DNA of 53,125 bases from Oscillospiraceae bacterium (GTDB taxonomy: Bacteria > Bacillota > Clostridia > Oscillospirales > CAG-272), in contig SVTL01000015.1 in the NCBI GenBank assembly GCA_015063795.1, positions 1-53,125 on the forward strand, given 5' to 3'. The notes under the pieces were generated by a model. The model made no database searches and had not been told where the DNA came from. It saw only the letters and a list, made by a program, of their open reading frames with translations. Position numbers and translations under genes: made by a program. Shown piece after piece: positions 8,789-53,125 of this stretch. How positions within the stretch are numbered: position 1 is the stretch's first letter; every line of letters starts with the position of its first letter.

Positions 8789-8841
8789 CCTGCTGTTTCA
8801 TCGGTCATCGCACGATTGAAGAAAAGAAAAAAACTCACTGT
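8789..8841 (+). repeat. Copy A of a ~53-nt direct repeat: frameshifted 5' coding fragment of a SLOG/DUF1273 gene (TCCFIGHRTIEEKKK...)
   Basis: About 95 % identical to copy B at 9365-9416. Homologous at protein level to the N-terminus of the intact gene at 9750. Confidence 0.75.
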
Positions 8842-8878
8842 GATTTTCCGAATACAGAGAGTTTTTCATGCGCATGAA

Positions 8879-9214
8879 TTATTTATTTCTTAAAACAGCC
8901 TTTGTGGTTTTGATAACCTCCGCAAGGGACTTGAGTTCTTCCGCAGAGCAATCCGAAAGAATATCGTCAATCAACTTCATGGAAACATGATTGCTCTTGA
9001 CTAAGCTGCCATATGCGATTTCGTCAAGAGTTACACCAAGCGCGTTTGCGATATTAACTAATGTGGGCAAGCTCAGTTTGGTTGCCGCACGTTCGATATG
9101 AGAAATGTTGGACGGCTCAATGCCGGATTCTTCTGCAAGCTTTGCTTGCGTCCATCCTTTTGCAGTACGAATCTCTTTGATTCTGCTGCCGATCGAAATA
9201 TAATCAATCCCCAT
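8879..9214 (-). CDS. XRE-family HTH regulator (112 aa) with a C-terminal helical extension
   Basis: Start MGIDYISIGSRIKEIRTAKGWTQAKLAEESG with SD GAGGTG 7 nt upstream. The track start MYIIL at 9283 has no SD. Confidence 0.75.
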   Translation of the reverse strand: MGIDYISIGSRIKEIRTAKGWTQAKLAEESGIEPSNISHIERAATKLSLPTLVNIANALGVTLDEIAYGSLVKSNHVSMKLIDDILSDCSAEELKSLAEVIKTTKAVLRNK

Positions 9215-9250
9215 GGAATTCACCTCATCATTTGCACTGAAGTTATTGTA

Positions 9251-9297
9251 TATCCGATTCGGATATGGTAAAATAATGTACATATCCGATTAGGATA
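9251..9297. promoter_or_regulatory. Two palindromic operator-like sites, TATCCGAtTCGGATA (9251-9265) and TATCCGAtTAGGATA (9283-9297), upstream of XRE-112
   Basis: Perfect and near-perfect 15-bp palindromes spaced 32 bp apart in the regulator's own promoter region. Confidence 0.5.
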
Positions 9298-9364
9298 CAG
9301 AATAATATTTATTTGTTTTTTCTTGTGCAAACGATACACGCGGTGAGTATTTTGACAAAATATC

Positions 9365-9437
9365 CCTGCTGTTTCATCGGTCACCGCACGATTGAAGGAA
9401 AGAAAAAACTCACTGTTCTTTCACAGCGAGCTTTCCA
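9365..9437 (+). repeat. Copy B of the SLOG 5' fragment repeat (PCCFIGHRTIEGKKKLTVLSQRA)
   Basis: About 95 % nt identity to copy A over 52 nt. Protein similarity to the intact SLOG N-terminus extends about 25 codons. It runs into the antisense of the next regulator gene. Confidence 0.75.
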
Positions 9438-9440
9438 ACC

Positions 9441-9641
9441 TTATTTGCGTGTCGGCTTTACATTGGAATCGGGTTTGATATCGCCCTCAATGGGGCCGTT
9501 GGCATCCTCAAAGGCTTTGATGTGCTGTCGGATCAAAACCAGCACCTGACTGTTCACACTTCTTCCCTCGTAATCGGCAACATAAGTAATTTTGTTCAGC
9601 ATTTCCTCTTCGATCCGAATCGATACGCTCTTGATAGCCAT
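9441..9641 (-). CDS. Ribbon-helix-helix (Arc/CopG-like) DNA-binding protein (66 aa)
   Basis: SVSIRIEEEMLNKI...YEGRSVNSQVLVLIRQHI fits the RHH beta-alpha-alpha pattern. SD GAGGTG 6 nt upstream. Confidence 0.65.
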   Translation of the reverse strand: MAIKSVSIRIEEEMLNKITYVADYEGRSVNSQVLVLIRQHIKAFEDANGPIEGDIKPDSNVKPTRK

Positions 9642-9749
9642 AAGATCACCTCAAAACAAATATATGATGTATTTATTTTAGATGCATTATGTGATATAAT
9701 GGCTAAAATAGATATATGGTATATCTATAAAATTTTAGGAGATGAACCA

Positions 9750-10232
9750 ATGACATCGAAGAACATCCTGCATACCTGCTGTTTCATCGGTCGTCGCAAG
9801 ATCGAGGAAAGCGAAGGATTGACGTTGAGCATAAGGCAACATATTGAAAGACTGATCACGGAAGAACGGGTGAACACCTTTTTGTTCGGAAGCCGATCGG
9901 ACTTTGACCGCCTGTGTCTGAAGACGGTGAGCGAACTGCAGAAACAATACCCGCACATCAAAAGAATCTACGTGCGGGCGGAATTCCCTTTCATTGACGA
10001 TACCTACAAAGCCTATCTGCTGCGATCCTACGACGAAACCTACTACCCCGAAGCGATCCTCGGTACCGGACGAGCGGTCTACATCAGGCGCAACCGCCAC
10101 ATGATCGACAACAGCCGCTTCTGCATCGTTTACCTCGACGAAGCCTCCGCCCCCCGCAACAGCGGCACCCGTCAGGCAGTCGCCTATGCCAAAGCGAAAG
10201 GCGCCATCACCGTCAACATCGCAGAAGCATAA
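9750..10232 (+). CDS. SLOG-family (YpsA/DUF1273-like) protein (160 aa)
   Basis: N-terminal CCFIGRR motif typical of DUF1273 proteins. SD tAGGAGatg 7 nt before the ATG at 9750. The track ORF start at 9522 is an upstream extension without an SD. Confidence 0.7.
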   Translation: MTSKNILHTCCFIGRRKIEESEGLTLSIRQHIERLITEERVNTFLFGSRSDFDRLCLKTVSELQKQYPHIKRIYVRAEFPFIDDTYKAYLLRSYDETYYPEAILGTGRAVYIRRNRHMIDNSRFCIVYLDEASAPRNSGTRQAVAYAKAKGAITVNIAEA

Positions 10233-23993: not shown

Positions 23994-25085
23994 ATGAAGA
24001 AAACGCAAGAGAATGAAAAACATCTCCCCGCCTATGTGGCTCTTTACCAAAAGCTGCGCGAGGAGATCGTGCGCGGTGTATATACTCACGGAAGCAAGCT
24101 TCCCTCCAAGCGCGTGACCGCCGCCGAGGAGGGGGTGAGCGTTATCACCGTTGAGCATGCCTATGCGCTTCTGGCCGATGAGGGATATGTGGAAGCCAGA
24201 GAGCGGAGCGGTTATTTTGTAACCTTTCGGGAGGGGGACGGCTTTTTGTCCTCGGCCATGCGGACTGCCCCTGCTCATCCTCAGATCAAAAAAGCACTGC
24301 CCGCCTCCGAGGAAGCCTGCTCCTTTCCCTTGCTGGCACGGACCATGCGGCGTGTGCTCTCCGTGTACGGCGAGGAGCTTCTGGAAAAATCACCGGGAAG
24401 AGGCTGTCTTTTTCTTCGTCGGGAGCTGGCGCGCTATCTCTCACGAAGCCGCGGCATCGACACCCATCCCGACGGCATCGTCATCGGCTCGGGCTCGGAG
24501 TATCTGTACGGCCTTGTGATCCGTCTTCTGGGGCGGCAGAGAGGATACGCCATCGAATCGCCCTCCTACCGCATGATCGAGCAGGTCTACCGCTCCTTTG
24601 AGGTGGTCCCCGAAAAGCTCCCGCTGGGACACGACGGCATCGAAAGTGACGCTCTTTGGCAGACCAACGCCGCCGTTCTTCATCTCACGCCCTACCGCTC
24701 CTTTCCCAGCGGCGTGAGCGCATCGGCCTCCAAGCGTCACGAGTACCTGCGCTGGGCAGACCGCGACGGGCGCTATCTGGTGGAGGACGACTTTGAATCG
24801 GAGTTTTCGGTCTCGCGCAAGCACGAGGAAACGCTGTTTTCCCATACAAGGCGGGAAAATGTCATTTACCTGAACACCTTTTCCAAAACCATCTCCCCCT
24901 CCATGCGCGTCGGGTACATGGTCCTGCCCCCCTCGCTGGCCGAACGGTTTGAGCAGGAGCTGGGCTTCTATTCCTGCACCGTTCCCACCTTTGAGCAGTA
25001 TGTATTGGGCGAGTTGATCGCCGCAGGGGATTTTGAACGGCACATCAACCGTGTCCGCCGTCAGAAGCGCCGCGCGGCAAAATGA
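23994..25085 (+). CDS. MocR/GabR-family (GntR-HTH plus aminotransferase-like) regulator, apparently C-terminally truncated (363 aa)
   Basis: N-terminal GntR HTH, then an AAT-fold domain with the PLP-lysine motif FSKTISPSMRVGY. It ends about 100 aa earlier than typical MocR proteins, exactly where the GC content drops. Confidence 0.8.
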   Translation: MKKTQENEKHLPAYVALYQKLREEIVRGVYTHGSKLPSKRVTAAEEGVSVITVEHAYALLADEGYVEARERSGYFVTFREGDGFLSSAMRTAPAHPQIKKALPASEEACSFPLLARTMRRVLSVYGEELLEKSPGRGCLFLRRELARYLSRSRGIDTHPDGIVIGSGSEYLYGLVIRLLGRQRGYAIESPSYRMIEQVYRSFEVVPEKLPLGHDGIESDALWQTNAAVLHLTPYRSFPSGVSASASKRHEYLRWADRDGRYLVEDDFESEFSVSRKHEETLFSHTRRENVIYLNTFSKTISPSMRVGYMVLPPSLAERFEQELGFYSCTVPTFEQYVLGELIAAGDFERHINRVRRQKRRAAK

Positions 25086-25177
25086 AGCGGTGCGCGCGGA
25101 TCAAAAGGACGTTTTGAATGAAACAGGTCTTTCCTATTCTCAGGAAGAACAGCATCCACGGACACAAATACCAAAAA

Positions 25178-26101
25178 TCAATCCATATTACAGACCAAGC
25201 TGTGCTCCACTTCCGATGTATATTTTCTTCCTAAAATATAGTTGATGGATTCCTCCGCTATTTTGTCTGTTGAATAGTCAACGCTTAACACCTTTACGAT
25301 GACATTCTTCAGCACAGAAAGGTTGTCAAATCCCGCGATCTGCACATTTTCGGGATACCCCAAATGCTTCAAAGCTTGAAGCGTATAGTAATCGGTCGCG
25401 CAAATAATCGCCCCGTCATTTGAAAGATCTTCAACATTTGTAACAATGCGATGGCTTTTCCCCAGTGTTCTCATTGCTTGAACAAAGCCGTTCAGCCTCA
25501 TACGCTGTGCGTTGATTGCATGCAGCGGTTTGTTCAAAACGGGAGCAAAATACTGAACATCCCCGGACGGTATCTTCTCGGCAATCGTTTTCGACAAATC
25601 GTACATTGCTTTCTCATCGTCTATCCCAACAAACGGCAGATCAAACAGTCTGTTTCCAATCAAAACGATTGGCTTTTTTAACGAGGTCAGATAATTTTTG
25701 TATTCCTCGTTATCACTGCCCACCGAAAACAAAACGATGCCATCCACGCCGATATAATCAAAATAGTCCAATGCCTTTTTTTCGTTTTTTTCATCTTTTT
25801 CCGAAAACTGAAAGATGATAGAATATCCGAGATTTCTTGCCGCCTTGACCAAACTCATCGCAAGCTTTGAAAAATATTCATTGTAAAGATCAAAAAGAAC
25901 AACACCGATCAGCATCGAGTTCGCTTGATCACCCATTTGAACATTCGGACGGTAATCGTATTCTTTTGCAACTTCAAGAATTCGTGCTTGAGTTTCGGGA
26001 TTGATCCCTTTCCTGTTATGAAGCGCACGGTCCACCGTTCCCTGAGAGACACCGCAAATTCTTGCAAGCTGTGTTGTTGTTATTTTGGAAAAACGTTTCA
26101 T
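25178..26101 (-). CDS. LacI-family transcriptional regulator
   Basis: N-terminal HTH (TTTQLARICGVSQGTVDRALHN) plus a periplasmic-binding-protein-like sugar domain. Overlaps the GH116 stop by 4 nt, suggesting an operon. Confidence 0.85.
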   Translation of the reverse strand: MKRFSKITTTQLARICGVSQGTVDRALHNRKGINPETQARILEVAKEYDYRPNVQMGDQANSMLIGVVLFDLYNEYFSKLAMSLVKAARNLGYSIIFQFSEKDEKNEKKALDYFDYIGVDGIVLFSVGSDNEEYKNYLTSLKKPIVLIGNRLFDLPFVGIDDEKAMYDLSKTIAEKIPSGDVQYFAPVLNKPLHAINAQRMRLNGFVQAMRTLGKSHRIVTNVEDLSNDGAIICATDYYTLQALKHLGYPENVQIAGFDNLSVLKNVIVKVLSVDYSTDKIAEESINYILGRKYTSEVEHSLVCNMD

Positions 26102-28605
26102 TGCAGCTTCAGCTCCTCATGTATTTCAACAGGATCGAAAACGATACAACCGTTAGCAACCTGAAAATCGATGTTTTCTCCGTCAACGGTAACATTTGTG
26201 ATCTGATCGGCGCCGGGTATGGCAATGGAATTCAATACCAAAGCCTTGCCAAAGACAGAAAGAATACACCGCTTCTCATAAAACGCAACACGCCCCCAAC
26301 TGTCACAAGCACTGAACAGATATGTTCCGCTGTTTTGAACAGGAGAAAAGCCGATATGCTTCTTCGTCATATCAAAGTGAAAGCCGCTGTATATGGGCAT
26401 CAAAGCATACGATGCCATCGAACGCGCATAATTGCTTCCGCATTCGATCTCATTCCAAGGATTTCGCTTTTCCCCGTCATACCGATCACGAACCGCTTTG
26501 ACGATGGTTTCGCCCTCGTCAACATAACCATGAGATATCATAAGCCCTGCAAGAGCATATTCAAAGCCTGTCATCGTTTCCTCACAGTAAGGGATCGGTA
26601 TCGCAGGGACCTTGGCACCTTCAGGATATGAGCAGATGATCGTTCCCGCCTCATCGTTCAGCGAGAAATTGCGCCACAGGTTTACAACGTTTCGCATGGA
26701 GGGCTTATAGTTGTTTTGATAAAGATTTTCAAGCGCGTTTTTTTTCTTTTCAAGATCAAAAACACCTTTTCGGCCAATCAGCACAGCATGCCAATCCGCC
26801 AGCATTTGGTCGATCATACAGCCGTCCGCAATCTGGTATTTGATCTCCTTTGCTTCTTCGTTCCAATATTTCTGAACGGCATCATAGCGTTCAAGAATGG
26901 ATTTGTCCGAAAGATCAATGAATTGATGGAAATATCTTCCATTGAAAAGATGCTCGTTCATAAATGCTTTGCCTTTTTCATAAAGCGTTGCGTAAAGGCT
27001 TGCCCGCTTTTCATCGCCAAGAGACCTTGCCATATCGGCACCGCAATCGAGCGCAAGCAGATAAAAGCCCTGAAGCCACGAGCTCGGTCCGAAAAGTTCC
27101 ATATCGAGCGTGTGATGCTGACGTCCCTCGAGAACGCCATCCATATCCGCATCCCACTTATCCGGATTTTCCTCTGACCACGCGTATTCAAGCATTTTGA
27201 AAATGCTCTCTGAATGCTTTTTCAGCCATTCGTTATCGCCTGAAAATTTCCATTCCCGATAGCACTTCAAAACCTCTCCCATCTGTCCGTCTACACAGGC
27301 GCGCTCCGTATACATCTCTCTTTTCAAGGGAAGATTGATGCGGAAGCTCGTAGCACCGCTGTCAAGAAGCGCATACTTCAGCGTATTTTCACGGATGGAA
27401 CGTTCAAGCCTTGGGAACAGATACGGCAGTGCATACGCATAATTCCAAACATGCTGACAGGTCCCGGAGCAGGAGCCGATGGTTTCACCGCAACCCTCCC
27501 ACCCCCAAAACGAGCCATCCTCAAGCCTGAGCACGGTAGGGGACTTGAGAACCGAAAGGTTTGCCGAGATCGCATCCTTGACCGATGCGGGAAGTGTGCA
27601 GGATTGTAAGGTTTTCGCAAACAACTCGGTTTTCCCGCCGAGCCAATCAAAATGTTTAAGCGCATACATGGCTGTCTCAAAGGAAGTTTGAAACTGTGTT
27701 GCGTAATAATTTCGCCACGTGGTACATTCCTCGTTACGCGGCTTCCAGTAGTTATAAGCAACCGGGACATTCCAAGCAATCACAAAACAAACCTTCGCTT
27801 TCGCGCCGGCAGGTATATTCACATACGAAACAACGGTGCCATGATCTCTCTTTGACGGCTCTGAATACCTTCTTTCCGGCATACGGTCTAAGCCGGAAAA
27901 CTGTTTCCAATAGGTGGTACAGCCGTCCATCCAGCCCCCTCTGTACCAATATTCCTGAGCAGAGCTGTCCTTATGATCGGTAAGAACACAAAGATCGAAA
28001 TATCCTTTTTCTTTATCATTCAAGTCGGCGCTTTTTAAGAAAATGCCGCTTACATCCCCCTCTTTTATGGCTTTGTTCAAAGAAGAGGCAGCAGGATTGC
28101 ATACCGTGCAGGCAAGCGAAAAGCGTATGGGTTCATCGGTTATGTTTTCTATTTCCCATTCAAAAAATGCCGACGGAAGACTTGAATGAAAGTCATCATG
28201 CGGTATCAGCGGATTAAAGGCACAAAGGCGTACAACGGCCGGGAAATCCTCGTCGGTGAACGAGAGCTTCGCTATCGGGAAACTGCCGTCAAAGGTCACG
28301 TTTTTGAAATGCGGAAGCCCGGCAAGCGAGTTTGCGCGCGGACCGTAACCAAATCCAACATGGCTACGGCTTAAGCACGGTATGCCCATGAGGTTTTCGA
28401 CAGTATCGCCGTGTAAAACTTTAGCAATATTCTTATTTGAATAGGAGGCCTTAATGGCGAAATGAGAGTATCCGTTTCGCGTGCATTTGCTTGGACGGTT
28501 AAAGATTTCCCAATCCTTCAACTCTCCGTTTCCTGCAAGACCAATGCAGCCTGTTCCAATGCCTCCGAGAGGAAAAGAAATGTTTTTTTTGCCTTGATAG
28601 ATCAT
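26098..28605 (-). CDS. Glycoside hydrolase family 116 (GBA2-type beta-glucosidase/glucosylceramidase-like), 835 aa
   Basis: N-terminal FPLGGIGTGCIGL motif and overall length typical of GH116. Start MIYQG with SD GGAGG. The 51-aa upstream track extension has no SD. Confidence 0.85.
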   Translation of the reverse strand: MIYQGKKNISFPLGGIGTGCIGLAGNGELKDWEIFNRPSKCTRNGYSHFAIKASYSNKNIAKVLHGDTVENLMGIPCLSRSHVGFGYGPRANSLAGLPHFKNVTFDGSFPIAKLSFTDEDFPAVVRLCAFNPLIPHDDFHSSLPSAFFEWEIENITDEPIRFSLACTVCNPAASSLNKAIKEGDVSGIFLKSADLNDKEKGYFDLCVLTDHKDSSAQEYWYRGGWMDGCTTYWKQFSGLDRMPERRYSEPSKRDHGTVVSYVNIPAGAKAKVCFVIAWNVPVAYNYWKPRNEECTTWRNYYATQFQTSFETAMYALKHFDWLGGKTELFAKTLQSCTLPASVKDAISANLSVLKSPTVLRLEDGSFWGWEGCGETIGSCSGTCQHVWNYAYALPYLFPRLERSIRENTLKYALLDSGATSFRINLPLKREMYTERACVDGQMGEVLKCYREWKFSGDNEWLKKHSESIFKMLEYAWSEENPDKWDADMDGVLEGRQHHTLDMELFGPSSWLQGFYLLALDCGADMARSLGDEKRASLYATLYEKGKAFMNEHLFNGRYFHQFIDLSDKSILERYDAVQKYWNEEAKEIKYQIADGCMIDQMLADWHAVLIGRKGVFDLEKKKNALENLYQNNYKPSMRNVVNLWRNFSLNDEAGTIICSYPEGAKVPAIPIPYCEETMTGFEYALAGLMISHGYVDEGETIVKAVRDRYDGEKRNPWNEIECGSNYARSMASYALMPIYSGFHFDMTKKHIGFSPVQNSGTYLFSACDSWGRVAFYEKRCILSVFGKALVLNSIAIPGADQITNVTVDGENIDFQVANGCIVFDPVEIHEELKLQ

Positions 28606-28647
28606 AACTGCCTCCAAAAAAAGATTCTTCGCCTTTATTTTATAATA

Positions 28648-28687
28648 AAAAAAACGCCGTGTCCACTTACACGGCATAATTTTTTTG
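28648..28687. terminator. Bidirectional hairpin terminator (A-run, gccgtg/cacggc, T-run)
   Basis: AAAAAAAA, hairpin gccgtgtccacttacacggc, then TTTTTTT. Confidence 0.6.
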
Positions 28688-28825
28688 AAAAACCATCGAT
28701 TGAACAAACCATGTATCGTTGCGCATATAATCCACTGTCTTCGGATGGATTGTATCATAAAAGCTCAATGTTTACACATAAAAATGAAGCACACGCTGCT
28801 CTCGCAGGAAGCGAAACGATTTTTT

Positions 28826-28943
28826 GCTCTTCTCTTTTCTCAAAAAACGACAATTTGAGAGAAGAGAGAAAATCGAAAAAGTGAAAAGAGAAAAGAACAA
28901 AAAGAAACGACAATCTTCAATTGAAAATTGTCGTTTCTTTTGG
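28826..28943. repeat. Structured direct repeat, copy 1: CT-tract, aacgacaattt, GA-tract, then a perfect 11-bp hairpin gaaacgacaat/attgtcgtttc and a T-run
   Basis: About 85 % identical to copy 2 at 29753-29889. The hairpin at 28904-28937 plus TTTT acts as the terminator of the upstream minus-strand mini-operon. Confidence 0.8.
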
Positions 28944-29006
28944 CTGTGGGCTACGAAAAAGACATTTTCGGCATTTTTGCGTATGACTTCGAACTCTCAC
29001 CGTTCA

Positions 29007-29336
29007 TTAGTTAGTATTTTTGCTGTTGTTAATATGGTTTCCATTTTTATCCCTATTTATAGGAACGGCGGTAAGGGAAAATTGCATGCAATGGCACGGA
29101 CAAGGAATTTCTATTTTATATTTATCTTTTGCACCTCTGTATGTAAAATCGCCGCCACATCTAACCACCTCACACCAAGTATAAATTTCCGCCATAGCTC
29201 GAGGGCAGAAACTTTGAGGCGTTTCGTATTCAAAATGAAAAACGTCTCCCTTTTCTAATCCAAGTCTGCAATTCTTTGCCTCTCCTTCAATTACTTCTAC
29301 ATCAAAAGCCCAATCTTCAACAATCCATTTGTTCAT
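29007..29336 (-). CDS. Small Cys-rich protein, TIGR04076-like (109 aa)
   Basis: Conserved-looking FCPRAMAEIY...GGDF...IPCPCHC Cys pattern. Overlaps the upstream gene by 4 nt (ATGA). The family assignment is from memory only. Confidence 0.5.
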   Translation of the reverse strand: MNKWIVEDWAFDVEVIEGEAKNCRLGLEKGDVFHFEYETPQSFCPRAMAEIYTWCEVVRCGGDFTYRGAKDKYKIEIPCPCHCMQFSLTAVPINRDKNGNHINNSKNTN

Positions 29337-29683
29337 TTGCCGTTCTCCTTTGCAGTATTCAAGGATGCAACAAGCATTCTCTTGATTTCTTCAGCAAGCG
29401 AGAGTAAGCTATCAAAATTATAATTCATAAGCTTTGTGTTTTTAAGAAGTTTCAACCAATAAATACTTTCTCCTGTTTCCTTAAGTGAAATATGAAGCTT
29501 TGATATAAAATCCGCTTTGCTGTTACCGTAAACTGCTTCGTTTATGTTTGCACCTATGCTTGTTGCAGAGCGAAGTAATTGTTTGGCGATAGTTGTATCT
29601 TTTTTTGATTTGGAAAACTCTTCATAAAACAATACGATTTATGTTGCAAAATCGAGAGATTTATCGAGCAAAGGACTGTTCAT
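29333..29683 (-). pseudogene. Four-helix-bundle (23S rRNA IVS / Avd-like) protein gene with an in-frame TAA at codon 15
   Basis: ATG at 29683 with SD GAGGTG. It reads MNSPLLDKSLDFAT-TAA-IVLFYEEFSKSKKDTTIAKQLLRSATSIGANINEA in one continuous frame, with the stop at 29639-29641. This matches the family consensus ...DKSFDFALRIIKLY...LSKQLLRSGTSIGANI. Confidence 0.6.
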
Positions 29684-29703
29684 TCGTCATCACCTCTGAT
29701 TGA

Positions 29704-29732
29704 ATTATACCACAAATTATTATATAATTCAA
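29704..29732 (-). promoter_or_regulatory. Promoter TTGAAT-17-TATAAT for the four-helix-bundle/TIGR04076 mini-operon
   Basis: Read on the minus strand, about 20 nt upstream of the SD. A 7-bp inverted repeat gctttgc-gaa-gcaaagc lies immediately upstream. Confidence 0.55.
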
Positions 29733-29752
29733 CGCTTTGCGAAGCAAAGCTA

Positions 29753-29889
29753 CCTTTTCTCTTCTCTTTTCTCTCTTATCTTTTCTCTGGAAACGACAAT
29801 TTGAGAGAAGAGAGAAAAGTGAAAAGATAAAAGTGAAGAGACCAAAAAGAAACGACAATCTTCTGTCGAAAATTGTCGTTTCTTTTTGG
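29753..29889. repeat. Structured direct repeat, copy 2, immediately 3' of tRNA-Ser; its hairpin and T-run is the tRNA terminator
   Basis: CT-tract, aacgacaattt, GA-tract, then hairpin gaaacgacaat-cttctgtcgaaa-attgtcgtttc at 29849-29882, flanked by an A-run and a T-run. Adjoins the tRNA 3' end. Confidence 0.8.
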
Positions 29890-29977
29890 CGGAGAAGGAG
29901 AGATTCGAACTCTCGCGCCGCTTTCGCGACCTACGCCCTTAGCAGGGGCGCCTCTTCACCAACTTGAGTACTTCTCC
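29887..29977 (-). tRNA. tRNA-Ser (anticodon GCT), class II, CCA encoded
   Basis: Minus strand reads GGAGAAG-TA-CTC-AAGTTGGTGAA-GAG-G-CGCCC-CTGCTAA-GGGCG-[19-nt variable arm]-GAGAG-TTCGAAT-CTCTC-CTTCTCC-G-CCA. Perfect 7-bp acceptor stem. 91 nt. Confidence 0.9.
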
Positions 29978-48347: not shown

Positions 48348-50077
48348 AGATCACCATCGACGGCATGAGCCTTGAGGTTCCTGCCGACATTACAATACTC
48401 GAAGCCGCCAGAACGGCCGGCATCAACATCCCCACGCTCTGCTACTTAAAGGACATCAACGAGATCGCCGCCTGCCGCATCTGTGTGGTGGAGGTGGAGG
48501 GCGTTGACCGCCTGGTTCCCGCCTGCAACACCAAGGTGGAGGAGGGCATGGTGGTTCTGACCAACACCAACCGCGTGAAGGAGAACCGCAAGATCAATCT
48601 TCAGCTCATCCTCTCTCAGCACAACAGCAACTGTCCCACCTGCGTGAGAAACGGCAACTGCACCCTGCAGCGACTGGCTGCGGAAAGCAACCTGTCCAGC
48701 GATCTTTACAGCAAGAAGATCTCGTCCAAGCCCTGGTCCAAGGACAACCATCTCATCCGCGACGAAAGCAAGTGCATCAAGTGCATGCGCTGCATCCAGA
48801 TCTGCGACAAGGTGCAGAAAATGAACGTCTGGGATGTGATCAACACCGGCAGCCGCACCACCGTGGGCGTCAGCGGCAACCGCAAGTTCAACGAGACCGA
48901 CTGTACCCTCTGCGGTCAGTGCATCACCCACTGCCCTGTGGGCGCGCTCCGCGTCAACGACGACACGTCCAAGGTCATCGCCGCTCTGACCGATCCCGAG
49001 ATTACCACCGTTGTGCAGGTGGCTCCCGCCGTCCGCGCCGCATGGGGCGAGCATCTCGGGCTGACCAAGGAGCAGGCCACCACCGGACGCATGGTCGCCG
49101 CCCTCCGCCGTCTCGGCTTTGACTACATCTTCGACACCAACTTCGCCGCCGACCTGACCGTCATGGAGGAAGGCAGCGAATTCATCGAGCGCTTCACGCA
49201 CAAGAGCGAATACGCCTGGCCCATGCTCACCTCCTGCTGCCCCGGCTGGGTACGCTTCGTGAAGGGCAATTTCCCGCAATATACCGACAACCTGTCCACC
49301 GCCAAGTCGCCTCAGCAGATGTTCGGCGCGGCCGCCAAGAGCTACTTCGCCGAAAAGGTCGGCATCGATCCCAAGAAGATCTTTGTCGTTTCCATCATGC
49401 CCTGCGTGGCCAAGAAGAGCGAATGCAAGCTGCCCGCTCACGTCAACGACAACGGCGATCCCGATGTGGATGTGGTTCTGACCACCCGCGAGTTCCAGCG
49501 TATGCTTCTCGCCGACAAGGCCGATCTGGGCTCGCTTCCCGAGTCGGAATTCGATTCGCCTCTCGGTCAGAGCTCGGGTGCCGGTCTGATCTTCGGCGCC
49601 ACCGGCGGCGTGATGATCGCCGCTCTCCGCAGTGCCTACTATCTGGTCACCGGCAAGAATCCCGATGCCGACGCCTTCTCGTCCATCGGAGGCAAGATCG
49701 GCTGGAGCGAGGCCGTGTTTACCATTCCCGGCGCGGGCGAGGTGAAGGTAGCCGTAGTCAGCGGTCTGAGCAACGCTCGCGCGCTGATGGAAGCCATTGA
49801 AACAGGCAAGGTCGCCTATGACTTTGTGGAGGTCATGGCTTGTCCCGGCGGATGTGCCGGCGGCGGCGGTCAGCCCATTCACGACGGCTTTGAGATGGCC
49901 GCACAGCGCGGCGATATCCTTTGGGAGCTGGACAAGAAGGCTGCCAACCGCTTCTCGCATGAGAACCCCGACATCCAGGCTCTCTACCGCGACTATTTCG
50001 AAAAGCCCCTGAGTGAAAAGGCTCACCACCTGCTCCACACCGACCACCACACATGGGAGATGCCCAAGAAGAAATAA
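48341..50077 (+). CDS. hydA: [FeFe] hydrogenase catalytic subunit (N-terminal [2Fe-2S] and [4Fe-4S] ferredoxin-like domains plus the H-cluster domain)
   Basis: H-cluster motifs TSCCPGWV, MPCVAKKSE, EVMACPGGCAGGGGQP. Start/stop overlap ATGGTAA. SD GGGAGGGA. Confidence 0.9.
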   Translation: MVKITIDGMSLEVPADITILEAARTAGINIPTLCYLKDINEIAACRICVVEVEGVDRLVPACNTKVEEGMVVLTNTNRVKENRKINLQLILSQHNSNCPTCVRNGNCTLQRLAAESNLSSDLYSKKISSKPWSKDNHLIRDESKCIKCMRCIQICDKVQKMNVWDVINTGSRTTVGVSGNRKFNETDCTLCGQCITHCPVGALRVNDDTSKVIAALTDPEITTVVQVAPAVRAAWGEHLGLTKEQATTGRMVAALRRLGFDYIFDTNFAADLTVMEEGSEFIERFTHKSEYAWPMLTSCCPGWVRFVKGNFPQYTDNLSTAKSPQQMFGAAAKSYFAEKVGIDPKKIFVVSIMPCVAKKSECKLPAHVNDNGDPDVDVVLTTREFQRMLLADKADLGSLPESEFDSPLGQSSGAGLIFGATGGVMIAALRSAYYLVTGKNPDADAFSSIGGKIGWSEAVFTIPGAGEVKVAVVSGLSNARALMEAIETGKVAYDFVEVMACPGGCAGGGGQPIHDGFEMAAQRGDILWELDKKAANRFSHENPDIQALYRDYFEKPLSEKAHHLLHTDHHTWEMPKKK

Positions 50078-50097
50078 GGTCGGTCAAAATCGCATAA

Positions 50098-50146
50098 AAA
50101 CACAAGAGGTGCCGCCCGTTTGATGGGTTGCACCTCTTTTTTTGTA
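50098..50146. terminator. Bidirectional terminator after hydA
   Basis: AAAAA, hairpin agaggtgc...gcacctct, then TTTTTTT. Confidence 0.75.
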
Positions 50147-50157
50147 TTCAAAATGCC

Positions 50158-51117
50158 TTAGCCCGCATAGCCTCTCGGCGGCAGGGTGATGGCAAGCTCG
50201 GTCTCGGTCTTGTCCGCGCCCGTCAGATACGTGATCTTCAGCTTGCCCTTCGCCTCAAACTCACCGCTTGTGACAAAATCGGCAACGTTCTCGGAGGCAT
50301 TTTCAAGAATATATTCCTTATAATAATCATCCTTGTCAAAAATATCCCGCACCACGATCAGGTGCTGTCCGTCTCTCTGCTCGGCATAGACCACAAGGTC
50401 GTATTTGGCCGTCAGCACATACGAAAAGGGCTCGGACACACGCCCCTCCGACAGTTCATAATAGGTAGCAGTTCTGGTAGATGGGCCTGCTTCCTGAAAG
50501 GCGATGCCCGTCACATGGGTGCTGACACTTTCTTCCATCGGCATTTTCGTCAAATTCTCTTCGCAAGCCAAAACCTGCCCATCATAATCGACAACAATAT
50601 AGTAATTGAGATTTTCTTCCGGGGAACTGTAAATTCTGTCAGCATAAACACTACTCGGTTCATATCGAGTAACATCTTTGATCGCTCCGTAAAACAATCC
50701 ATAGTGGCCGCCGTCGTTCATATCAAAAGTTCCGTACACTTCCACATACTTACCGTTATGCCGTTCTGCCTCTTTTTTGGAAATCACAGTCTCATCAAGA
50801 TCGATCCAAATACGTTGATCCCCGCCGTATTTCAAATCTTCTTCGCTCAATGCAATGCAGTTTCCTTCAAACTCGATGTTCCCAACACCAATCACACGAA
50901 CCTCTTTCCCATGGTATTTTTCAGGCGTGGCAAGTAGCTGCACCATCGAAACAAAACCATACTGAGAACGTGAGTAGCATTCCTCTTTTTCAACTTCCTC
51001 CTCTGCCTCAAACGAAAGCAATCCGTTTCGGTAAAACACACCCAGAACAAACGCCGCAAGAAGAATCAGAAGAACAAACTGCAGAATGCATAGAATCCAA
51101 AGTGCTTTTTTGTTCAT
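50158..51117 (-). CDS. Membrane-anchored hypothetical protein (319 aa)
   Basis: N-terminal signal-anchor helix (MNKKALWILCILQFVLLILLAAFVLGVF). No recognised domain. Confidence 0.6.
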   Translation of the reverse strand: MNKKALWILCILQFVLLILLAAFVLGVFYRNGLLSFEAEEEVEKEECYSRSQYGFVSMVQLLATPEKYHGKEVRVIGVGNIEFEGNCIALSEEDLKYGGDQRIWIDLDETVISKKEAERHNGKYVEVYGTFDMNDGGHYGLFYGAIKDVTRYEPSSVYADRIYSSPEENLNYYIVVDYDGQVLACEENLTKMPMEESVSTHVTGIAFQEAGPSTRTATYYELSEGRVSEPFSYVLTAKYDLVVYAEQRDGQHLIVVRDIFDKDDYYKEYILENASENVADFVTSGEFEAKGKLKITYLTGADKTETELAITLPPRGYAG

Positions 51118-51214
51118 TTTGCCACCGCCTTTTTGTTTGATAATCTATTATATCACATTTCAAACAAAAAGTAAAGCCGGCGCAGTATAATTCCTCTGAA
51201 AAATCAAATATTAA

Positions 51215-51279
51215 CTTCACATTTTTTGATTCAAAAGGAGATTATATATAAGAAAGCCACAGGCATTGTCAGACGCATC
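51215..51279 (+). repeat. Direct repeat copy 1: SD plus 5' end of a SpoVT/AbrB-type gene, with the start codon mutated (tatataTAAGaaagcc)
   Basis: Motif ttttgattcaaaaggagatt...aaagccacaggcattgtcagacgcatc, about 90 % identical to copy 2. It would encode MKATGIVRRI, but ATG has become AAG. Confidence 0.75.
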
Positions 51280-51384
51280 CATAAATGAGGTGTAATAACA
51301 CCAAGACCCGAAAAGCCTCATAGGCACTACATTTTTACAGATTTTCTCAAAATCAATTTGCACAAATACAAAATCTATCCATAG

Positions 51385-51418
51385 CAAAAGCGAGGTATAT
51401 GTTATCTCGCTTTTGTTT
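51385..51418. terminator. Bidirectional hairpin terminator downstream of the Gfo/Idh/MocA gene
   Basis: Hairpin aaagcgag-gtatatgttatc-tcgcttt followed by T-rich sequence on both strands. Confidence 0.6.
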
Positions 51419-52634
51419 ATAAATCGCAAACATCTTTTCTTGGACGCTTATACCATTTACCGTTCGTAAAGTCAGGCATCGCCTGAGGGGCACCCCCCTG
51501 CTGAATTGAGATTTCTGAAAGCACCGAAACTGCCTGCCATGTGGCAGCATCATAAACATCAACAGGCATTTCTGTTTTATTTATCAAAGCATCGGTAAAC
51601 GCTTTATAACAAAACCAATCCATACCGCCATGGCCCGCTTTCATTTCTTCATCTGTTATATTTTTCCATATGCTTGGCAGATATTCTTCCTCGTATTTTT
51701 TAGCATTATTCAGATTGTCTATATAATAATCATACATATCCCAGTAAGTATGTTTTTCACCGTCAAGAAAAACCGAATTCGTATCCTGCATAAACATACC
51801 TTTTGTTCCTCTAACTGTAAAATCACGCGTATATGAACGAGGAAGTGTGGTGTCAAGTCGGAGCATAATCGTTTCGCCGTTTGCACAAGTCAAAATCGTG
51901 ATGATAACATCCCCCTGCTTAAAATCCGCATTTTTCATTTCCTCGGTGGCGTCGTCACGCTCTTTTATATAGTCTTTAAGGCCGACAGCCTTTGTTGCAA
52001 ATGAAGATACGGTAAGAATTCGGTTGCCTCTGTTAATATCAAGAAGCTTAGCAATAGGGCCCAAATCATGTGTAGGATAGTTATCACAGCAACGGTTTAA
52101 ATAGTTATCAAAACGGTAATGACGATTTACATGCCCATAAGCAATTTCATCTCTTAAATCATGAGAATAAGAGCCGGAGCAATGGACAACGGTGCCGAAT
52201 TTCCCTTTTCTTGCCATAGCGGTTGCCAAGAGCTCAGCCTTACCCCAACAACAATTTTCCACAAACATGTACGGCGTGCCGGTTTCCTCTTGAACTCTCA
52301 CTAACTCATAACAGTTTTCCAAAGAATATTCGCATCCAACTTCACTTGCAACAGCAATTCCTTTTTTCATTGCATAAACTGCAATTTCAGTGTGTGTGCT
52401 CCAATCACTAAACACAAATACCGCATCAACGATATCCACCGCAAGAGCTTCTTTATAATCGGTAAAACCCTTCGCATCTTGTCCAGCTTCTCTTACCAAT
52501 TCGATTGCTCTTTGTATTCTATCTTCATATAAATCGCAAACAGCAACAATGTTAAGGCTACTTATTTTCAACAGCACTTTTTTGAGCAAATCGTATCCAC
52601 GATTCCCCAGTCCGACAACACATGCATTTATCAT
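51417..52634 (-). CDS. Gfo/Idh/MocA-family NAD-binding oxidoreductase (possibly a GH109-like NAD-dependent glycosidase)
   Basis: N-terminal Rossmann GLGNRG motif and a GHGGMDW motif in the C-terminal half. No signal peptide. Confidence 0.75.
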   Translation of the reverse strand: MINACVVGLGNRGYDLLKKVLLKISSLNIVAVCDLYEDRIQRAIELVREAGQDAKGFTDYKEALAVDIVDAVFVFSDWSTHTEIAVYAMKKGIAVASEVGCEYSLENCYELVRVQEETGTPYMFVENCCWGKAELLATAMARKGKFGTVVHCSGSYSHDLRDEIAYGHVNRHYRFDNYLNRCCDNYPTHDLGPIAKLLDINRGNRILTVSSFATKAVGLKDYIKERDDATEEMKNADFKQGDVIITILTCANGETIMLRLDTTLPRSYTRDFTVRGTKGMFMQDTNSVFLDGEKHTYWDMYDYYIDNLNNAKKYEEEYLPSIWKNITDEEMKAGHGGMDWFCYKAFTDALINKTEMPVDVYDAATWQAVSVLSEISIQQGGAPQAMPDFTNGKWYKRPRKDVCDL

Positions 52635-52867
52635 ACTCTTTTCTCCTTTAAGCCAACAATATATGTTATGTTCATTTTAATAAAATCGCTTTCATTGAAA
52701 AGCCCATATAAAATTAAATCAACATCGGTATCGAGCCAAATCAATCCCGTTATGATAACACCAATAGACTCAATGACAAATATCCACTTTGCCCAATTTT
52801 TAATTTTACCGCCTATGGTTTCGTATAAATGATCAAATATAAAGAAAACATCCGATTGTTTCTTCAT
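52631..52867 (-). CDS. Small membrane protein (78 aa), hypothetical
   Basis: One or two TM helices. Its 3' end overlaps the downstream gene by 4 nt (ATGA). Confidence 0.4.
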   Translation of the reverse strand: MKKQSDVFFIFDHLYETIGGKIKNWAKWIFVIESIGVIITGLIWLDTDVDLILYGLFNESDFIKMNITYIVGLKEKRV

Positions 52868-52932
52868 TATAGCACAAACACATTAAAAAGTAAACACACT
52901 AGTATAAATCTCCCCGTTTTACAAATACTATC

Positions 52933-52998
52933 ATCACAAATTTTGATTCAAAAGGAGATTTTATATATATGAAAGCCACAGGCATTGTCAGACGCATC
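52933..52998 (+). repeat. Direct repeat copy 2: intact SD and ATG plus the first 11 codons (MKATGIVRRID) of a SpoVT/AbrB-type gene, then unrelated sequence
   Basis: aaaGGAGattttatatatATGaaagccacaggcattgtcagacgcatcgac. The 11-residue match to the SpoVT/AbrB N-terminus ends abruptly. An embedded TTGTCA-N18-TATAAT-like motif follows. Confidence 0.75.
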
Positions 52999-53125
52999 GA
53001 CTCTTCTGTTATAATAGGGGCAAAGGTCAGAAGCCTTGAAAACACGGGGTTTTCGCTGATTTTTGTCCAACTTCATCAATACCCCAAGCCGTGATGAGGC
53101 TGCCATCACAACAGCTCCTACGCTG

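Follow-up and report, generated by a model that had tools for sequence, protein, structure and literature searches.

Intervening sequences (IVSs) of bacterial ribosomal RNA (rRNA) genes are 'selfish' insertions in 23S and 16S genes, encoding the uncharacterised PF05635 family of proteins (S23p, or intervening-sequence protein, IVP) (PMC4990558; 10.1101/2024.02.27.582315). IVP is in turn related to Avd, the accessory protein of diversity-generating retroelements (DGRs) (PMC10053308). We analysed a 53,125-nt stretch of a metagenome-assembled Oscillospiraceae bacterium (assembly GCA_015063795.1, contig SVTL01000015.1, positions 1 to 53,125, which is the entire contig; 'the window' throughout), in which a low-GC interval at 25086-29886 ends against a tRNA-Ser(GCT) gene and contains an IVP gene within a cassette of about 0.95 kb. 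The cassette is best described as an IVP-bearing selfish insertion that is tied to tRNA rather than rRNA genes and has a cargo slot; a tRNA-anchored patch of foreign DNA as such is ordinary. No earlier description of an IVP cassette at a tRNA end was found in the literature searched, in Rfam or in plasmid and phage collections, which is not proof of novelty.

Like the rRNA IVSs of Leptospira, Coxiella and bacteria of the candidate phyla radiation (CPR), the cassette is small, AT-rich and sporadic, is tied to a stable-RNA gene, carries a PF05635 gene and has structured ends; the IVP open reading frame (ORF) is often decaying in IVSs, and in the window's cassette it holds a nonsense codon. IVSs, however, lie inside an rRNA helix, are co-transcribed, are excised by RNase III at a stem of terminal inverted repeats and carry no cargo, whereas the cassette lies outside the tRNA, after its CCA, and has its own promoter, a variable second gene and left and right ends that are not complementary to each other. 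With the Avd of DGRs the IVP shares its fold and family, but neither a reverse transcriptase nor template or variable repeats occur in or beside the cassettes examined.

The outermost feature at the left end of IS200 is a transcription-terminator hairpin, and a second, long hairpin comes after it. The cassette shares with IS200/IS605 elements and their non-autonomous derivatives, the palindrome-associated transposable elements (PATEs), the lack of terminal inverted repeats and of an obvious target duplication, insertion in one orientation 3' of a short target (here ...CCA), a target-like right end, (A/C)CA, and perhaps hairpins at or near the ends. It departs from IS200/IS605 in having an Avd-like conserved gene and, in the cassette and in the window interval alike, no TnpA (Y1) or TnpB; moreover, its left hairpin begins directly at the junction, not some 19 nt further in, and its right hairpin is weak. 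By analogy, the features of the cassette would most resemble single-strand transposition of the IS200/IS605 type, although there is no linked Y1 transposase. By their defining features, integron cassettes, rRNA IVSs and DGRs are all different from the cassette, and the transposase of IS200/IS605 is missing.

An earlier, sequence-only reading had taken the whole interval for one genomic island that entered at the tRNA and appeared to have clipped the MocR-family regulator on its far side. We favour, with a probability of roughly 0.75, a different account, in which the low-GC interval is a stack of separately acquired pieces of foreign DNA at the 3' flank of tRNA-Ser(GCT), the MocR regulator is undamaged and the cassette belongs to a large family of mobile type.

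The low-GC interval and its cassette

The low GC content from which the sequence-only reading had started is borne out by a computed profile: 25086-29886 is the lowest-GC 4.8-kb stretch of the 53-kb contig (GC 0.429, against a mean of 0.554, standard deviation 0.034 and minimum 0.475 in 388 comparison windows of 4.8 kb outside the islet). Its tetranucleotides are equally deviant (correlation with the rest of the contig 0.33-0.60, compared with 0.85-0.91 for typical 2-kb windows), and GC at third codon positions (GC3) is 0.31-0.50 in its genes and 0.70-0.74 in flanking core genes. ARAGORN and Rfam confirm the anchoring, tRNA-Ser(gct) being the sole tRNA that they found and the islet ending at the base preceding its 3' end. 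The tRNA alone passed the threshold of the Rfam scan, the sub-threshold matches of the repeat described below being hairpin noise. All ORFs in the 25-30 kb region could be assigned (LacI, GH116, TIGR04076, IVP), and the content is as first read, that is, a LacI gene overlapping a GH116 gene plus a separate two-gene cassette (29007-29683); the genes flanking the interval are housekeeping genes. Pfam and NCBIfam profile searches of the ORFs revealed no integrase, transposase or recombinase domain in the interval or its immediate flanks. DNA of foreign composition does, as had been claimed, adjoin the 3' end of a tRNA gene with no integrase of its own. The separate bounds noticed for the two-gene cassette also held, and to these can now be added defined ends and an exact insertion point at the tRNA end. 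Its parts, with the target, are as follows.

28821-28941, minus strand: DR1, solo copy of the 121-nt left-end repeat (repeat search; 87% identical to the left ends of two metagenomic cassettes, L233 and L243)
28942-29886, minus strand: cassette of about 0.95 kb, inserted exactly after the tRNA CCA
28942-29006, minus strand: RE, conserved right end (GTGAGAGTTCGAAGTCATACGC...TCTTTTTCGTAGCCCACAGCC), in which a small hairpin, CGAAAA/TTTTCG, is predicted
29007-29336, minus strand: cargo gene, Cys-rich TIGR04076-family protein of 109 amino acids (aa), GC 0.376 (NCBIfam 34.9 bits, cut-off 33)
29333-29683, minus strand: IVP gene, 23S-rRNA-intervening-sequence-protein/Avd-like four-helix bundle (PF05635 5e-21, TIGR02436 7e-25)
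29704-29732, minus strand: cassette promoter TTGAAT-17-TGgTATAAT, then the ribosome-binding site GAGGTGA (consensus scan; conserved in 15 aligned cassettes)
29767-29886, minus strand: DR2, left end of the cassette (94% identical to the left ends of L233 and L243)
29887-29977, minus strand: tRNA-Ser(GCT), the insertion target (ARAGORN; Rfam 56.6 bits)
30045 to 30017, minus strand: host promoter-like site of tRNA-Ser (promoter consensus scan)

DR1 and DR2 form a 121-nt direct repeat that brackets the cassette, the two copies being 83-88% identical. DR2 opens, at the base after the tRNA, with a 22-bp bidirectional terminator hairpin (AAAAAGAAACGACAAT...ATTGTCGTTTCTTTTT), after which come CT-rich and GA-rich tracts (the CT/GA hairpin) with the stem arm repeated for a third time between them (AAATTGTCGTTTCC); a short hairpin lies between the GA-rich tract and the promoter. 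DR1 is likewise composed of terminator hairpin, CT tract, AAATTGTCGTTT motif and GA tract. An 11-mer, GAAACGACAAT, occurs three times in the left end. As DNA the left end folds with -37.7 kcal/mol (z = -8.1), while in an RNAalifold analysis of 30 repeat copies the terminator hairpin alone folded consistently and the CT/GA hairpin was unsupported as a conserved RNA structure. The earlier statement that there is no tRNA-derived att repeat holds good, since all that the repeats share with the tRNA is the terminal (G)CCA, and the 121-nt repeat is therefore not a classical att repeat of tRNA origin.

The IVP matches the structure PDB 2RLD with an E-value of 2e-23, and the start of the cargo gene overlaps its stop codon (ATGA). 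In the window the IVP frame is interrupted by an in-frame TAA at codon 15 (29639-29641), and a 99-aa ORF restarts at TTG 29632, whereas the intact orthologues of 115-116 aa have Q, K, E or D at codon 15 in the loci examined. From its sequence, the window IVP would be either a pseudogene or expressed from the TTG at 29632; the nonsense codon sits behind an intact promoter and ribosome-binding site, and loci L096 and L099 also have a 99-aa call. The TIGR04076 cargo has no match in Pfam, PHROGs, PADLOC or the PDB, and the IVP none in PHROGs or PADLOC, which leaves a defence-system or phage reading unsupported.

A cassette family behind many tRNA genes

In Clostridia of the gut and rumen, members of the cassette family follow numerous different tRNA genes directly at their 3' ends, and their cargo is interchangeable. 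Scanning metagenome contigs for the hairpin, with selection on exact arms, gave at least 120 loci. Among the matches listed, a tRNA 3' end lies within 5 nt of the hairpin in 75 of 121 instances, at a constant side and in constant orientation, and the tRNAs concerned have at least 15 anticodons (Tyr, Met, four Ser, Gln, two Pro, two Arg, His, Lys, Trp, Thr); many of the remaining instances are cut by contig ends or abut tRNA-like ends missed by ARAGORN. The full repeat is followed about 84 nt on by an IVP gene at 17 of the loci listed, 16 of them with an IVP 81-93% identical to that of the window. Loci retrieved independently, by the IVP protein, have the same layout behind tRNA-Ser(cga) and tRNA-Gln(ctg), and a named metagenome-assembled genome (MAG) in GTDB has the repeat behind tRNA-Arg(ccg).

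The boundaries are sharp. In an alignment of 15 cassettes, homology starts immediately after the ...CC of the tRNA and stops at the IVP stop codon, beyond which lie differing genes that usually overlap this stop codon: a GNAT acetyltransferase, a glyoxalase/bleomycin-resistance protein, an AAA_18 P-loop protein, YunG, TIGR04076 and two unknowns. None of the cargo proteins scanned matches a defence-system model, and no reverse transcriptase domain was found in them or in the interval. The left junction reads ...NCCA/AAAAGAAACG (the slash marking the boundary) behind 15 or more tRNA species. At the other side, a right end of about 60 nt (...GAGAGTTCRAAKTCATACGC...TCTTTTTYGTAGCCCAYAG(A/C)CA) is identical in kind after five cargo types, with unrelated flanks beyond. 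It follows the pattern TCTTTTTYGTAGCCCAYAGMCA and finishes ...GTAGCCCAYAG(A/C)CA, with ...AG(A/C)CA/ at the terminus in nine loci; it closes ...GTAGCCCAYAGMCA where the left end opens AAAAGAAACGACAAT, and its (A/C)CA mirrors the CCA of the left junction. A 6-bp A/T-rich hairpin is predicted within it in three variants, with one compensatory change and a non-significant energy. Derivation of the right end from a tRNA fragment, suggested by a resemblance of GAGAGTTCGAAG to the T-arm of tRNA-Ser that was seen by eye only, was set aside.

The layout of L233 is that of the window: a tRNA, then left end, IVP, cargo and right end, then a second left-end copy. The L233 contig also has a Y1_Tnp gene, 3 kb away from the cassette and with no repeat beside it. 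Searches of plasmid and phage collections gave no cassette match except for a 133-nt stretch of an IVP gene, 76% identical, in one phage record.

Three other loci depart from this plan. In a distant relative (fecal_MAG_83; L016, 8526-10872), HPrK and tRNA-Glu(ctc) are followed by a 42%-identical IVP gene, from which it appears that adjacency of IVP and tRNA recurs beyond the cassette subfamily studied here. At L161 (6779-7378), tRNA-Glu(ctc) is followed by two tandem units of about 220 nt. Both close with a sequence like the 3' end of a tRNA (...GTCCCCTACGGGTCACCA) and a terminator, and the second of them abuts the 121-nt repeat; these units may be the trace of serial insertions at one tRNA. 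At L213 (4118-5540), tRNA-Gln(ctg) is followed by a different terminator hairpin of similar style (AAAAAATTCGACAAG...CTTGTCGAATTTTTT) and then by a gene for a 320-aa membrane protein, the conserved right end and the 121-nt repeat, making an IVP-less variant of the cassette.

The MocR regulator is a natural short form

The regulator upstream of the interval had been suspected of losing its C-terminal subdomain to the insertion.

23994-25085, plus strand: MocR/PdxR-like regulator, 363 aa, host DNA (GC 0.59, GC3 0.70)

That it is shorter than the usual family is correct. Pfam recognizes GntR and Aminotran_1_2 (the GntR-type winged helix-turn-helix, PF00392, at residues 14-76), the aminotransferase match covering only positions 37-280 of 361 of PF00155; against the NCBIfam PdxR model it aligns at positions 1-359 of 448 (364 bits, cut-off 320), and it ends about 90 profile positions before the canonical PdxR/GabR C-terminus. 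Loss by insertion is nevertheless ruled out. A search of 5.8 billion proteins returned 119 homologues, 57-68% identical at a query coverage of 94-100%, nearly all of which are 359-377 aa long, apart from three of 386-409 aa and one of 614 aa. The 11 nearest homologues, when aligned, share a nearly invariant motif, GDFERHINRVRRxKRK, at the C-terminus, with the stop no more than 3-12 residues beyond it, while the genes downstream of short MocR genes elsewhere are unrelated (an acyltransferase, a MatE transporter); the contexts of four of the nearest homologues (P0002, P0003, P0005 and P0013) have no downstream genes in common. Aligned with its family, as the sequence-only reading had proposed, the protein thus proves to be of a subtype that is naturally about 360 aa long. 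The missing part, a complete aminotransferase domain with its C-terminal small subdomain (which would give a total of about 450-480 aa), would accordingly never have belonged to it: judged from the homologous sequences this is a natural short form and not a truncation, because the whole subfamily of 359-377 aa stops alike. The stop codon and the GC transition fall together merely as the point where host DNA ends, and an intact regulator corrects the suggestion that it had been clipped.

The window gene is divergent from that of an energy-coupling factor (ECF) transporter S component, and one relative also adjoins a pyridoxal kinase gene, neighbours that fit a role as regulator of vitamin B6 salvage. 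More broadly, the homologues (P0003-P0120) make up a large MocR/PdxR-like subfamily of Clostridia, naturally about 365 aa long and without the small subdomain of the aminotransferase, with a conserved basic tail, RVRRxKRK, and often beside genes for an ECF S component and pyridoxal kinase. The 614-aa form (P0002; L001, 3480-5324) is a short MocR in which some 250 residues are duplicated internally, likely an assembly artefact.

The GH116-LacI unit

The larger part of the interval is a second piece, with limits of its own.

25164-28687, minus strand: GH116-LacI unit with its own upstream region (limits set by DNA homology to two metagenomic loci, L226 and L230)
25178-26101, minus strand: LacI-family regulator, 307 aa (Pfam LacI and Peripla_BP_1; GC 0.416, GC3 0.45)
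26098-28605, minus strand: GH116 glycoside hydrolase, 835 aa (Pfam Glyco_hydr_116N and GH116 catalytic region; GC 0.47, GC3 0.50)
28677 to 28654, minus strand: terminator-like hairpin upstream of GH116, overlapping a promoter-like site at 28665 to 28637 (consensus scan, pattern match only)
28688-28820, minus strand: AT-rich linker, with tentative weak similarity to the -10 region of the cassette promoter (MAFFT alignment)

In blastn comparison, the window is 81% identical to L226 and L230 over 3.53 kb (from 25163/25165 to 28686/28688), and homology does not extend beyond. The LacI and GH116 genes overlap by 4 nt. The nearest GH116 homologues are 80-82% identical over their full length (834-845 aa) and are likewise followed by an overlapping gene for a 307-aa LacI, 82-83% identical in L226 and L230, in two unrelated neighbourhoods: between SpoVT and FeoA in one, and between ApbE and a GDSL-lipase in the other, where a relaxase/serine-recombinase element lies about 1.3 kb upstream. 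The core proteins next to the pair in the window, MocR and HPrK, by comparison reach only 67-68% identity to any database protein. The related hosts have a GC of 0.42 and 0.46, and the pair there (GH116 0.43-0.44, LacI 0.38-0.39) is near the GC of its flanks, whereas in the window a pair with GC3 of 0.45-0.50 stands among core genes with GC3 of 0.70-0.74. Some of the lower-GC Clostridia lineages with GH116-LacI share samples with the window organism. On this comparison of sequences the pair was very probably acquired horizontally, and there is good evidence for the import of a ready-made regulator-enzyme unit from a lower-GC lineage of Clostridia, which amounts to an ordinary transfer of carbohydrate-utilisation genes. 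GH116 probably starts at 28605 (835 aa) and not at 28758, since all gene callers and homologues give 835 aa and the terminator-like hairpin and promoter lie inside the longer ORF.

At L230 (308-4576), where the element upstream consists of a relaxase and a large serine recombinase, the pair may lie at the edge of an integrative mobilisable element, a candidate vehicle for the unit. In another contig of the same species (L002, 11185-12105, corresponding approximately to window 25178-26098), LacI is called as 252 aa with a 160-nt gap to GH116, which could be a frameshift or a strain variant.

Alternative explanations

The strongest competitor to mobility, unlikely in our estimation, is that nothing here moves: the 121-nt element would be a lineage-wide tRNA terminator kept alike by selection or gene conversion, and the operons of IVP and cargo would be inherited vertically. 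The many tRNAs that have a hairpin or solo repeat only and no IVP are as it would predict, as are the lack of polymorphism in the window species and of a recombinase. It is contradicted by the distribution of identity, since the database contains more than 120 distinct IVP clusters that are 89-97% identical, whereas for the core proteins of the window organism the same database holds nothing above 68%; most of these IVPs are on contigs of less than 2 kb, the pattern expected of a repeat that breaks assemblies. Composition tells against it as well, the cassettes having a GC of about 0.35 in hosts of 0.42-0.55 (IVP and cargo about 0.35 where flanks are 0.50-0.54, and 0.34-0.38 in the window against 0.55-0.59 for the host). 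Nor does it account for a right end that is kept after unrelated cargo, or for two alleles of one species (L233 and L239), 98.9% identical over 4.8 kb, that part exactly at the right-end terminus. Finally, 96%-identical cassettes stand behind tRNA-Gln(ttg), tRNA-Ser(cga) and a third tRNA-like end, and one cassette, 99.9% identical between its copies, has two different left flanks. In the window itself, DR2 is nearer to the cassette left ends of other organisms (94%) than to DR1 (83-88%), which fits a cassette inserted at the CCA before a resident solo repeat.

Several observations nonetheless weigh against our account of a stack of acquired pieces with a mobile cassette. There was no presence/absence polymorphism: contigs with an identical MocR (13 read) or cargo (16 read), where long enough, all share the arrangement, and the roughly 150 loci compared included no pair of a filled and an empty allele. 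Neither a recombinase nor a circular junction nor any product of excision was seen, mobility being drawn from comparative anatomy alone. The hairpin scan is biased to exact arms and highly redundant, the same loci recurring in many samples, and contigs that span repeats can be chimeric, which makes any one pairing of tRNA and cargo less secure than the overall architecture. For the right-end hairpin the folding energy is weak (z -0.3 to -1.0). As to the entry route of GH116-LacI, a search for a cassette right end after LacI, or for a second one elsewhere in the window, found none, and the unit is for that reason not claimed as cargo of the IVP cassette type; a candidate remnant of the cassette promoter past DR1 proved to be just a short -10-like similarity and is tentative. 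The higher identity to relatives of GH116 than of MocR could, moreover, partly reflect different evolutionary rates. No syntenic relatives were found in GTDB representatives or among the MocR relatives: HPrK gave 80 loci in GTDB representatives, the best at 67% identity, none with tRNA-Ser, MocR, LacI or GH116 nearby, and the 317-aa HPrK ORF has no exact database record, probably owing to a different called start.

A single classical integrase-type island at the tRNA-Ser 3' end, one that cut MocR short on entry and whose integrase and att sites later disappeared, is less credible again and strikes us as improbable. It would explain tRNA adjacency, low GC, the absence of an integrase and a MocR that ends about 90 profile positions early, and in tRNA-anchored islands, too, DNA of foreign composition piles up 3' of a tRNA; by analogy, the newest insert is plausibly the one nearest the tRNA. 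The short MocR is, however, normal for its subfamily, with a terminus conserved in the 11 aligned homologues, and the interval splits into units with separate homology limits and separate relatives. The repeats share CCA alone with the tRNA and no duplicated tRNA 3' segment is present, and the inserts measure 1-3.5 kb, not tens of kb. What survives of the island first proposed is foreign DNA at a tRNA end; the single islet gives way to at least two independently delimited acquisitions and a solo repeat.

An integrase-less array of integron-type gene cassettes (a cluster of attC sites lacking an integron integrase, CALIN), with the 121-nt repeat as attC, matches the modular frame, the small, promoter-poor and interchangeable adaptive cargo of typical integron kind (GNAT, glyoxalase/bleomycin-resistance), the structured border repeat of about 120 nt and the occasional tandems (L147, L213, L224, L233), but is the least probable of all, because the recombination sites differ (junctions CCA/AAAAAGAAACG and ...AG(A/C)CA/ in the family and, in the alignments, CCA/AAAAAGAAACGACAAT and GTAGCCCAYAGNCA/, with no GTTRRRY core at either), because every aligned cassette has a conserved IVP gene and its own conserved promoter (TTGAnT-17-TGnTAtAAT), and because the arrays, of one or two units, are anchored on tRNA genes and not on attI/intI, no intI being present.

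Proposed mechanism and significance

In the account that we prefer, piece 1 (25164-28687), the GH116-LacI unit, would have been imported from a lower-GC lineage of Clostridia, and piece 2 (28942-29886), the modular cassette, would have been inserted precisely after the CCA of the tRNA. DR1 would then most simply be the terminator element that formerly abutted the tRNA and was displaced by this insertion, the bidirectional hairpin of the new left end would now terminate the tRNA-Ser transcript, and the cassette promoter and leader gene (IVP) would drive one coupled cargo gene. We infer from the comparative sequences that the cassette is mobile and moved in trans, as it encodes no recombinase. 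There would be three candidate agents. A single-strand HUH/Y1 transposase might work on the hairpins of the ends, as in IS200/IS605, with insertion 3' of '(N)CCA'; a site-specific recombinase, unlinked to the cassette, might act instead; or homologous recombination might use the repeat together with the conserved tRNA. As for IVP, the guess that needs least would be a DNA- or RNA-binding accessory that recognizes the thrice-repeated GAAACGACAAT.

We put forward tentatively, as a proposal with somewhat less than even odds, that IVP cassettes are unrecognised small mobile elements that home to the CCA ends of tRNAs, a tRNA counterpart of the rRNA intervening sequences and an expression frame that shuttles single adaptive genes among gut Clostridia, in which the Avd-like IVP may aid targeting or mobilisation. 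One possibility for its part in targeting is binding of the triple GAAACGACAAT motif or of single-stranded end hairpins; more speculatively, it might support tRNA-primed reverse transcription of an antisense transcript ending at the bidirectional terminator, and the element would in this way come to lie directly behind the CCA.

If the cassettes are mobile, the IVP/S23p family, so far met with only in the selfish insertions of rRNA genes and in the form of the DGR accessory Avd, gains a second and richer context in which to test its function, small adaptive genes would have a new route of exchange in gut and rumen Firmicutes, and a class of metagenome assembly breaks beside tRNA genes would be explained. 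The terminator-promoter-leader module of the cassette could also serve the engineering of poorly tractable Clostridia.

Other low-GC patches in the window

Two further patches of the window have low GC. The first, at 8-10 kb (GC 0.42, tetranucleotide correlation 0.39), contains genes for an XRE-type helix-turn-helix protein (8879-9283, minus strand) and a YpsA/SLOG-like protein (9522-10232), with three 44-nt direct repeats at 8789, 9365 and 9775 (window 8789-9818). The other, at 50000-53125 (GC 0.37-0.43), contains a GH109-type glycosidase gene (51417-52634, minus strand) that is bracketed by direct repeats of about 80 nt (51205-51279 and 52922-52998), and is possibly another imported carbohydrate-active enzyme unit, bounded differently.

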